Shown here: positions 7,368 to 59,924 of the stretch, in pieces
Numbering within the stretch: the stretch's first letter is position 1
Layout of the letters: each line of letters starts with the position of its first letter
Source of the DNA: Octopus vulgaris
Lineage: Eukaryota
Direction of reading: 5' to 3'
DNA: 64,000 nt
NCBI GenBank assembly: GCA_951406725.2
Contig: OX597840.1
Span: 6,572,001 to 6,636,000 of the forward strand
Notes under the pieces: generated by a model
Told to the model about the DNA's origin: nothing
Seen by the model: the letters and a program-made list of their open reading frames with translations, nothing else
Database searches by the model: none
Made by a program: the position numbers and the translations under genes

Positions 7368-7690
7368 TAATAAATAAAATAAAACATATGCATATATATA
7401 AACATATATGTACGTACCTACCTCTACATGTACATATACACGCATATATGAGTACAGGACACCAAAAAGGACGTCGAACACAATGAGAAACGAAAACATA
7501 GACACAAACCAAAGGAACTGGACATTTATTTAAAAACAGCAAAAAAATAGAATACAGGACAATTAACACAAAGAAAAAAACCCCTTCTTCAGTCGCTAAA
7601 GGTTTCATCTACTCTACGTTTCGAAGGATAAAAGCGAGACGTATCTTCGACAAGAAAACTTTCCTTCCTGCGAAAAGCAAATCAATTAAA
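7368..7690 (-). mobile_element. Interspersed repeat (Penelope/retrozyme-like end) carrying a permuted hammerhead
   Basis: Colinear homology with 22005-22290 (atatgtacgtaccta...caggacacca...ccccttc[t/a]tcag...tttcgaagg...tccttcctgcgaaa). Class assignment is inference. Confidence 0.6.
7581..7645 (-). ncRNA. Putative non-circularly permuted hammerhead ribozyme
   Basis: UACG-UC-UCGCU..CCUUC-GAAA-CGUA..AGCGA-CUGAAGA-AGGGG; stems I and III pair perfectly. Confidence 0.65.
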
Positions 7691-8097
7691 ATTCTGAGAT
7701 CTTTTCGCAGAGGGGTAAAAAATAGTAACAACAGGACAGTAACGACAGTGCAAATTGTAAACAGTATAAGACAGGAGAAGGAAAAACAAGATAAGAAGGG
7801 CTGTTGACGCCGAACGAAAAAAAGTATTGCAAACGCAGAATTTTTTATGGACGACGAGCGGAGGAAAAAGAGTGTCGTCCATTACCTTGAAAGAGCCAGG
7901 CTGTTTGTCTGTCTATTTATCTATCTATCTTTCTATCTATCTATGTTTGTCTATCTATCTACCTATCTATCAATCTATCAATCTTTCTGTCTGCGTGTCT
8001 GTCTGTCTATTTATCTACCTACCTATCTATCTACTTAACTATCTATCTATCTATCTGTCTATCTGTCTGTCTATCTAGCTAGCTATCTATCTATCTT

Positions 8098-20930: not shown

Positions 20931-20932
<2 letters not shown>

Positions 20933-20990
20933 TCTCAAGATTAATCAGCTGAAATTGCGAGGATGATCCGGTTCTTGACTGAAGATTGAA
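20931..20990 (+). ncRNA. Putative non-circularly permuted hammerhead, second family
   Basis: AA-UC-UCAAGA..GAAA-UU..UCUUGA-CUGAAGA; same order and spacing as the 7581 and 22186 loci. Confidence 0.5.
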
Positions 20991-21066
20991 GGCTTCGAAT
21001 GACCCATCCATGTTTTTTGTAACGTCTTCTAAATGTTTTGCGTTCTTGTACCAGTTTGTATTTTTT

Positions 21067-21119
<53 letters not shown>

Positions 21120-21644: not shown

Positions 21645-21815
21645 TATGTATAAACAACAACGCGTGGACGTGGTACATACAAAGTATTAATAAGACGCTC
21701 GGGGAAGGAAAGAAAGGGTATTTTATGTTTCGAGCAGAGCTCTTCTTCAGAAACATGAGACAGAGGAAAATACAAAAGGAAAGGAAGGCACAGGCAAAAG
21801 TTGCCGACAATCAAC
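21645..21815 (-). mobile_element. Penelope-like terminal fragment with a minimal hammerhead (21721-21754)
   Basis: Minus strand UUU-CUGAAGA-A-GAGCucuGCUC-GAAA-CAUA-AAA; homologous to 49790-49936. Confidence 0.6.
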
Positions 21816-21952: not shown

Positions 21953-22002
<50 letters not shown>

Positions 22003-22004
22003 TG

Positions 22005-22290
22005 TAATAAATAAAATATATGCATACATACAAACATATATGTACGTACCTACATCTACGTGTATATATACATGCATATATAAATATATATACATGTACA
22101 GGACACCACAAATAGACGTAGAACTCAACGGACCATTTTTTAACAACGGAAAAACAGAGTACAAGACAACTACACAAGGAAAAATCCCCTTCATCAGCTG
22201 TCCCTAGTTCCACTCCAGTGTGTTTCGAAGGTGGGGACAGAACACGTCTCACCGAACTAATCCTTCCTGCGAAAGAATTAAATAAAATTC
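22005..22290 (-). mobile_element. Second copy of the permuted-hammerhead repeat family
   Basis: Colinear with 7368-7690. Confidence 0.6.
22186..22246 (-). ncRNA. Putative non-circularly permuted hammerhead ribozyme
   Basis: GUG-UU-CUGUCCC..CCUUC-GAAA-CAC..GGGACAG-CUGAUGA-AGGGG. Confidence 0.65.
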
Positions 22291-22346
22291 CTTTGCGTCG
22301 ATTCGATTCGATTCGTTTGGTTTCGTTTCTTCTTCTTCTCTAAGCT

Positions 22347-22424
<78 letters not shown>

Positions 22425-22894: not shown

Positions 22895-25228
22895 CACACA
22901 CATATACACACACACATATATATACATACATACATACATACATACATACATGCATACATACATACGTACATACATACGTACGTACATACATACATGCATA
23001 CATACATACATACATACATACATACATACATACATACATACATACATACATACATACATACGTACATACATACGTACATACATACATACATACATACATA
23101 CATACATACACCCATACGTAGATACATACATACATACATACATACATACGTACATACATACATACATACATACATACGTACATACATACATACATACATA
23201 CATACATACATACGTACGTACATACATACATACATACACCCATACGTACATACATACATACATACATACATACATACATACATACATACGCCCATACATA
23301 CATACATACATACATACATACATACATACATACATACATACATACATACATACATACATACATACATACATACATACGTACATACATACGTACGTACATA
23401 CATACATACATACATACATACATACATACATACATACATACATACATACATACATACATACATACATACATTCATATATACATACATACATACATACATA
23501 CATAAATACATACTTATATACATACATACATACATACATACATACACACATACATACATACATACATACATACATACATACATACCCATACATACATACA
23601 TACATACATACATACATACATACATACATACATACATACATACATACATACATACATACATACATACATACATACATACATACATACATACATACATACA
23701 TACATACATACATACATACATACATACATACATACATACATACATACATACATACATACATACATACATACATACATACATACATACATACATACATACA
23801 TACATACATACATACATACATACATACACACATACATACATACATACATACATACATACATACATGCATGCATGCATGCATGCATGCATACATACATACA
23901 TACATACATACATACATGCATGCATACATACATACATACATACATACATACATACATACATACATACATACATACATACATACACACATACATACATACA
24001 TACATACATACATACATGCATGCATGCATGCATGCATGCATACATACATACATACATACATACATACATACATACATACATTCATACACACATATATACA
24101 TACATACATACATACATACATACATACATACATACATACATACATACACACATACATACATACATACATACATACATACACACATACATACATACATACA
24201 TACATACATGCATGCATGCATGCATGCATGCATACATACATACATACATACATACATACATGCATGCATACATACATACATACATACATACATACATACA
24301 TGCATACTTACATACATACATACGTACATACGTACATACATACATACATACATACATACATACATACATTCATACACACATATATACATACATACATACA
24401 TACATACATACATACATACATACACACATACATACATACATACATACATACATTCATACACACATACATACATACATACATACATACATTCATACACACA
24501 TACATACATACATACATACATACATACATGCATGCATGCATGCATGCATGCATACATACATACATACATACATACATACATACATACATGCATACATACA
24601 TACATACATACATACATACATACATACATACATGCATACTTACATACATACATACGTACATACGTACATACATACATACATACATACATACATACATACA
24701 TACATACATGCATGCATGCATGCATGCATGCATGCATACATACATACATACATACATACATACATACATGCATACATACATACATACATACATACATACA
24801 TACATACATACATACATACATACATACTTACATACATACATACGTACATACATACATACATACATACATACATGTATGTATGTATGTATGTATGTACATG
24901 TATGTATGTATAGACCAAAAGTGCCGTATGTATGTATGTAAAATGTATGTATGTATGTATGTATGTATGTATGTATGTATGTATGTATGTATGTATGTAT
25001 TATGTATGTATGTATGTATGTATGTATGTATGTATGTATGTATGTATGTATGTATGTATGTATGTATGTATGTATGTATGTATGTATGTATGTATATAAA
25101 TATATGTGCAAGTGTCTATAAATCTATGTATGCATGTATGTATATATGTATAAATGTATGTATGTATGTATGTATGTATGTATGTATGTATGTATGTATG
25201 TATGTATGTATGTATGTATATATGTATG

Positions 25229-25261
<33 letters not shown>

Positions 25262-25372
25262 TTGTAAGTATGTATGTATGTATGTATGTATGTATGTATG
25301 TATGTATGTATGTATGTATGTATGTATGTATTTATGTATGTATGTATGTATGTATGTATGTATGTATGTATG

Positions 25373-25406
<34 letters not shown>

Positions 25407-25456
25407 TGTATGTATGTATGTATGTATGTATGTATGTATGTATGTATGTATGTATG

Positions 25457-25490
<34 letters not shown>

Positions 25491-25680
25491 TGCATGTATG
25501 TATGCATGCTTGCATGTATGTATGTATGTATATGTATGTATGTATGTATATATATATGAATGTATGTATGTGCCTATGTATGAGTGTATATATATGTATG
25601 TATATATGTATGAATGTATGTATGTATGTATGTATGTATGTATGCATGTATGTATGAATGTATGTATGTACGCATGTGTC
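22895..25680. repeat. ~2.8-kb (TACA)n then (TATG)n satellite-like array
   Basis: Strand switch at ~24872 (catacatgtatg). Confidence 0.97.
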
Positions 25681-59865: not shown

Positions 59866-59924
59866 TTCTACTGAAGAGGAAAGAATCTTTTATGAGATAG
59901 TTCCGAAATTGATTCAATATAGAA
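59866..59924 (+). ncRNA. Type I hammerhead ribozyme
   Basis: UUCUA-CUGAAGA-GGAA(19 nt)UUCC-GAAA-UUGAuUCAA-UA-UAGAA; all three stems and the core intact. Confidence 0.8.

Follow-up and report, generated by a model that had tools for sequence, protein, structure and literature searches.

The closest described relatives of the ribozyme analyzed here are the type-SGC hammerheads, HRIMA-1 and its variants, which according to the main text of Eckert 2023 (PMC10085705) come from environmental sequence, none of them from the genome of a known organism. That text takes as a basic assumption that CUGAnGA and the adjacent paired bases are contiguous. Among retrotransposons, the Naiad group of Penelope-like elements is stated, in the sections of Craig 2021 (PMC8557442) that treat hammerheads, to lack canonical ones, with 8 half-core and 9 core cases flagged. 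We examined a stretch of 64,000 nt of Octopus vulgaris DNA (hereafter the window, whose numbering is used throughout), in which a sequence-only reading had described a permuted hammerhead at 22186..22246 on the minus strand. Our results indicate that the sequence at this place is probably a copy of a high-copy, ORF-less tandem retroelement whose RNA carries a core in SGC order, with one self-cleavage predicted per unit and a stem II likely supplied by a strand located 20-30 nt upstream. Its parts are the following, the copy being assigned to subfamily B.

22186..22266 (−): predicted ribozyme, whole; block order 5′ to 3′ X, P0a, S block, G block, P0b, C block
22262..22266 (−): X, GAAGG, upstream partner of CCUUC, predicted to form the 5′ side of stem II; first G = G10.1
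22254..22259 (−): P0a, 5′ side of leader helix P0, placed by covariation
22234..22245 (−): S block, with the stem III 3′ strand GUG (22245-22243), UU (22242-22241; U16.1 and H17, GUU triplet), the predicted cut and the stem I 3′ strand CUGUCCC (22240-22234)
between 22241 and 22240 (−): predicted cut
22220..22231 (−): G block, with CCUUC (22231-22227, C11.1 at 22227), GAAA (22226-22223) and the stem III 5′ strand CAC
22205..22210 (−): P0b, 3′ strand of P0, abutting the stem I strand on its 5′ side
22191..22204 (−): C block, with the stem I 5′ strand GGGACAG (22204-22198) and CUGAUGA (22197-22191)
22186..22190 (−): AGGGG behind the core, conserved in the family, with no covariation with CCUUC
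22001..22296 (−): direct body of the 5′-truncated element copy (blastn to a tandem unit, 86%)
21961-21999: (TA)n terminating the copy
22295..22360 (+): 5′ junction of the copy, where the 3′ tail of the element recurs in inverted orientation (94% over 68 nt)
22351-22420: (TA)n after the inverted tail

The permuted core and its copies

All segments named by the sequence-only reading were found at their places on the minus strand, where a CA dinucleotide separates CUGUCCC from CCUUC and 15 nt lie between CAC and GGGACAG. Two changes are private to the window copy, since nearly all compared contigs differ from it at these positions: one at 22219, by which the fourth stem III pair is lost, and one at 22211, by which P0 is shortened. 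The window holds a second copy of the same element and also a copy of a third family whose ribozyme is built in the same way.

7378..7866 (−): second copy, subfamily A; ribozyme 7581-7667, X 7663-7667
between 7638 and 7637 (−): predicted cut of the subfamily A copy
20932..21114 (+): 5′-truncated copy of the third family, its start about 4 nt ahead of the predicted cut

The 7 kb and 22 kb repeats had been described as colinear, and their homology is borne out by a mean column identity of 72% between them and by 71.8% identity over 362 nt between the 7 kb copy and a tandem unit of the 22 kb subfamily. Likewise, the core segment of subfamily A at 7581-7642 (−) carries UCGCU/AGCGA as stem I and UACG/CGUA as stem III, so that the proposed replacement by CUGUCCC/GGGACAG and GUG/CAC was confirmed in both copies. 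In each of them the core runs in the order cleavage site, GAAA, CUGAnGA, a non-circular permutation of type SGC, and a descriptor covering all six permutations called both copies SGC, not type I. The permuted core is not a product of chance, because no SGC match arose in 40 dinucleotide shuffles of the window and because, across the 2.8 Gb genome, the core pattern matches 6,416 times against 14 for a reversed control. The core pattern of the third family has 4,597 exact genome matches (control 0), and together with 411 exact matches of a sister motif of the same architecture, the families sum to more than 11,000 exact matches in one animal genome. Adjacent third-family matches are often spaced 755-810 bp apart (further loci L065, L359-L373). 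At the window locus, Rfam searches in evalue and gathering modes returned no hammerhead match and only microsatellite noise.

In the 52 diverse copies that we aligned, CUGAnGA, GAAA and H17 are present, with the U16.1-A15.1 pair in 51/52, the catalytic core having been part of the search pattern used to collect the copies. DNA search scored at least 40 copies of subfamily B at 95-96% identity and at least 40 of subfamily A, which is young, at 96-99%. The family is also contained in contigs of two other organisms.

Other repeats of the window deserve mention. At about 21721-21757 (−), 430 bp from the permuted ribozyme, another repeat contains a minimal hammerhead core of Penelope type whose elements follow the usual order (CUGAAGA, extra A, 4-bp stem II, GAAA), and a type I (CGS) descriptor match with a long stem II loop lies at 59866-59924 (+), for which 40 shuffles gave 0 strict matches. 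A 2.8 kb inverted (ACAT)n/(ATGT)n microsatellite array at 22896-25670 is the origin of spurious Rfam microRNA matches, and Pfam matches on seven window frames were discarded as repeat noise.

Covariation and the partner of CCUUC

The proposed pairs hold in 90.4% of the cells of the 52-copy alignment, with a double change at 18/23 pairs, compared to 39-47% pairing in slid controls. For the strand X, this alignment is a biased sample: most of its rows (49) were pre-filtered for X pairing and 3 were added by hand, which inflates the percentage for X. The covariation score of 0.432 against 0.231 in shuffled alignments (reached in 0/500) comes from cells that include related copies, and relatedness alone can beat shuffles. 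That the covariation reflects the shared ancestry of a few subfamilies, combined with chance complementarity in a repeat, is a reading to which this relatedness lends something, and which we nevertheless consider very improbable: counted on a tree, 20 independent compensatory events fall on separate branches compared to 1.3 with permuted partners (maximum 12 in 2000), X occurs in four unrelated sequence solutions, and the shuffled window contained no SGC match at all. The events are distributed as 7 in stem I, 7 in stem III, 4 in P0 and 2 in the pairing of X with its partner strand IIb. Pairing in stems I and III is thus kept under sequence change, as proposed from the two window copies, and this supports selection acting on the permuted hammerhead fold among the element's ancestors.

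The same reading had implied a stem II formed by CCUUC and AGGGG, and here the data point elsewhere. On the tree of the 52 copies, this helix has 0 compensatory events, while the partner that covaries with CCUUC is the upstream GAAGG, which lies beyond the segment first described. X and CCUUC are paired in 98.5% of cells with a double change at 3/5 pairs, in an alignment mostly pre-filtered for X. An unbiased test was obtained with 174 copies chosen on stems I and III alone, X not considered, in which 32 singletons were left unscored: all 14 clusters of at least two members have a partner with 5/5 Watson-Crick pairs 20-30 nt upstream of the cut, compared to 1-3/5 Watson-Crick pairs between the strand behind the core and the bases before GAAA. 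The four X/IIb solutions are GAAGG/CCUUC, GAGCA/UGCUC, GACAC/GUGUC and GGCUG/CAGCC. The first base of X is always G and faces the C before GAAA, which gives the canonical G10.1-C11.1 pair; in 14/14 clusters this pair closes the predicted stem II through the upstream strand, and not through a strand directly behind CUGAnGA as in type SGC. In five examples out of five, the duplex energy is better for X (−5.7 to −8.3 kcal/mol, versus 0 to −3.1 kcal/mol). We conclude that the conserved CCUUC and AGGGG are probably not partners of each other.

An ordinary type-SGC hammerhead would be recovered if stem II were formed with the strand behind CUGAnGA, after one extra nucleotide and then G10.1, X being an inhibitory strand that switches the precursor off. 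In the window's family, the core is followed by GG, from which one or two pairs could still arise, CCUUC can pair with the strand behind the core in 97.5% of cells, and an extra base at that position is common in the Penelope hammerheads of the published texts covered. We nonetheless regard this arrangement as unlikely, since its pairs are mostly G-U and show none of the compensatory events found for the other helices. In addition, G is absent from positions +1 and +2 behind the core in 16/16 copies of the third family, which makes a contiguous stem II impossible there and leaves X, which this family keeps, as the sole candidate. Read by eye in the published consensus ends, coral, jellyfish, ctenophore and squid Naiads also keep X where a contiguous stem II is impossible.

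The preferred arrangement, with stem II split between the leader and the bases before GAAA, includes the helix P0, which joins sequence about 15-20 nt before the cut to the linker directly before stem I and is paired in 83.5% of cells, with a double change at 5/6 pairs (52 copies). The leader preceding X may form a further helix with the tail that follows the core, which would be rich in G-U pairs. Two other structural ideas were abandoned: a kink-turn in the loop between P0 and stem III failed, by eye, to fit both subfamilies, and a canonical hammerhead built from neighbouring tandem units would still contain the break between A9 and G10.1. A hammerhead working with such a break was not found in the literature covered, which consisted mostly of open-access texts.

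Tandem units, 5′ ends and the search for a driver

Copies of the family are T-rich and 5′-truncated, with (TA)n on their flanks, and some consist of head-to-tail units of about 755, 785, 832, 848 or 925 bp (range 755-930 bp) without an ORF and with one hammerhead per unit (loci L008, L027, L060, L206, L227). Of the two outcomes proposed for an extended consensus, a junction with a Penelope RT/GIY-YIG ORF or retrozyme-like tandem units, the latter was observed. At one locus (L206, G000:C1:18815800-18820200), the 832-bp units are near-identical and all ribozymes have U, not C, before GAAA. The insertions display the traits of Naiads, namely a (TA)n target, 5′ truncation, partial tandems and an inverted 5′ piece; an inverted piece at the 5′ junction, as in the window copy, is a structure reported for Penelope-like insertions in the corresponding section of Craig 2021 (PMC8557442).

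We propose that read-through RNA of tandem units would be cut once per unit, yielding monomers. The upstream product would retain X, P0a and the stem III strand, such that three helices could clamp the ends of a monomer together, and this clamp would favour religation to a circle, as in non-LTR retrozymes. To be copied into (TA)n, the RNA would then depend on a Penelope-like RT/GIY-YIG enzyme supplied in trans.

A possible trace of the predicted cleavage is found in the distribution of 5′ ends. We used an anchor motif lying about 200 nt downstream, which has 6,454 matches, and considered the first 100 listed. The ribozyme is reached by 65 of these copies, and in 17 of the 65 the 5′ end falls within −2 to +13 relative to the predicted cut, an interval chosen after an earlier look at the data. 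This corresponds to 0.019 ends per nt compared to 0.0023 elsewhere (about eightfold, p 1.6e-9). Over the next 15 nt upstream, only 1/48 copies has its end. A scan statistic on 75 of these copies, with identical contexts collapsed, was reached in 0/5000 simulations, and in a partly overlapping, core-anchored sample, the corresponding count was 28/95. This excess fits reverse transcription of cut RNA, with a promoter or stalling of the reverse transcriptase (RT) as alternatives; if cleavage is its cause, the pile-up would be genomic evidence that a Penelope-associated ribozyme cuts RNA that gets reverse-transcribed. Contigs of presumed RNA runs include some that stop near the predicted cut and some that cross it, and so speak neither for nor against it.

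The fold could also be real and serve no useful cleavage, for instance as a structure bound by a protein or by RT, the 5′ ends then reflecting RT stalling or an internal promoter. Most of the ends indeed lie 5-12 nt behind the predicted cut, not on it, often at TA microhomology, and metazoan Penelope hammerheads cleave poorly in vitro as far as the accessible text of Cervera 2014 goes. Moreover, pseudoknot-free folding, by which the fold itself cannot be displayed, gave no special stability (z −0.9 to +0.7). We consider a non-cleaving structure improbable given that four families all conserve the catalytic core, the U-A pair preceding the cut and a base other than G at position 17, and that the sharp drop of 5′ ends on the upstream side is what is expected of a cut template.

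No ORF-bearing parent of the family was identified. A Penelope ORF joined to it was not found at the GIY-YIG and Naiad RT loci or by upstream extension, the element lacks the ORF with N-terminal GIY-YIG and RT that characterizes an autonomous Naiad, and the most diverged subfamily was still non-coding when extended upstream. The 30 GIY-YIG loci correspond to elements with a C-terminal endonuclease (EN), at none of which the family lies downstream in sense. A family copy located 2.2 kb behind a Naiad remnant (L333) was rejected as a linked unit, as it looks like a separate insertion. An ORF link was obtained only for the sister family, in which the C-terminal remnant of a Naiad RT precedes the motif. 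The Naiad RT frames seen in this genome are decayed, which, set against subfamily A copies that are 96-99% identical, counts against the explanation proposed here. Of 148 GIY-YIG matches, 16 fall within open frames of 781 aa that belong to a family with C-terminal EN, and this Neptune-like family with intact frames is a candidate for the present driver in trans. The 781-aa frames occur at L240 and L245 (G000:C16) and at 14 more places with many equal scores, and the family is apparently young.

Naiad 3′ ends and other known systems

The sister motif lies behind the C-terminus of a Naiad RT at 12/30 close loci and 4/20 distant loci, and the Naiad 3′ ends of this genome are almost identical in sequence to the consensus ends published for Octopus. 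We read by eye, without computation, the last ~300 bases of 44 Naiad consensus sequences in the supplement of Craig 2021. Within these ends, the architecture X, P0, S, G, P0, C was recognized in 9/44, from a ctenophore, cnidarians and cephalopods: Bfor (stem I of only 2 bp), Chem-3, Amil, Aacu, Anas, Movir-2, Obim, Ovul and Esco (X imperfect). Six nematode entries (Nbra-1, -2 and -3, Hcon, Hpol and Asuum) have the CSG order with contiguous stems, an order represented in the main text of Eckert 2023 (PMC10085705) by only two sequences, both metagenomic. These nematode ends have clean stems I-III, with an obvious bridging helix in 5/6. The spider entry Ptep is SGC with a stem II that is not clear, and the other 28/44 ends show no such motif in the displayed part or are ambiguous. 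Ends from bivalves, hemichordates and certain cnidarians share other, non-hammerhead motifs, which may be other self-cleaving RNAs. The 3′ end of Naiad_Parc presumably resembles HDV.

The window's family has no blastn similarity to Naiad 3′ UTR loci, and its motif likely descends from a Naiad 3′ ribozyme, a view drawn from ribozyme architecture and insertion pattern. The split-stem motif is likely the ribozyme that was thought to be missing from Naiad retrotransposons. More broadly, though with less assurance than for the window copy itself, we favour the idea that a hammerhead topology beyond the six permutations, with the break between A9 and G10.1 and an upstream stem II, is the hallmark 3′ ribozyme of many Naiads from ctenophores to cephalopods, and that it would drive circular retrozyme-like elements in the copy numbers given above, while nematode Naiads would use the rare CSG form.

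If correct, this would place non-circularly permuted hammerheads, so far known from environmental sequence with hosts not known, in a mobile element of animal chromosomes and with a role, and would offer a possible answer to the puzzle of Naiads that lack canonical hammerheads yet have unexplained core motifs. It would also challenge the assumed contiguity of CUGAnGA and stem II, in which case existing descriptors would miss a whole class. Neither non-circularly permuted hammerheads from animal genomes or retrotransposons nor a stem II detached from the core turned up in full-text searches of the mostly open literature.

Compared with the main text on HRIMA-1 and type SGC, the window's family shares the S-G-C order, a complete core, both stem I and stem III, 2-3 nt linking stem I to stem II and an extra helix tying the linker before stem I to a flank. 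It differs in that stem II comes from the 5′ leader, whereas in HRIMA-1 it stands directly behind CUGAnGA, and the resulting four-block order lies outside the six permutations considered by Eckert. The extra helix would have the same role with a different connection: in HRIMA-1 it is described as joining the free sides of stems I and II, while P0 uses the 5′ leader next to X.

Non-LTR retrozymes, in the portions of the two sources consulted (Cervera and de la Pena 2020, PMC7229834; Li 2026, 10.64898/2026.07.22.740005), are likewise ORF-less tandems that carry one hammerhead per unit, are low in GC, occur in thousands of copies and have a proposed Penelope-like origin. They have a canonical type I hammerhead and units of 200-400 nt, in contrast to a permuted ribozyme in units of 755-930 bp, and circular RNA is a feature of retrozymes that is only proposed for the window's family. 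Naiads, as far as described in the sections used (PMC8557442), have the same (TA)n targets, 5′ truncations, partial tandems and inverted 5′ pieces, along with 3′ ends of the same ribozyme architecture; in contrast to them, the window's family is without an ORF and without blastn similarity to Naiad 3′ UTR loci. Finally, the type I hammerheads of Penelope-like elements, in the published descriptions covered, also sit near the 3′ end and have a proposed function in processing tandem precursors, but they are circularly permuted, have little or no stem III and need dimers, whereas in the window ribozyme stem III is complete and the order is pseudoknotted.
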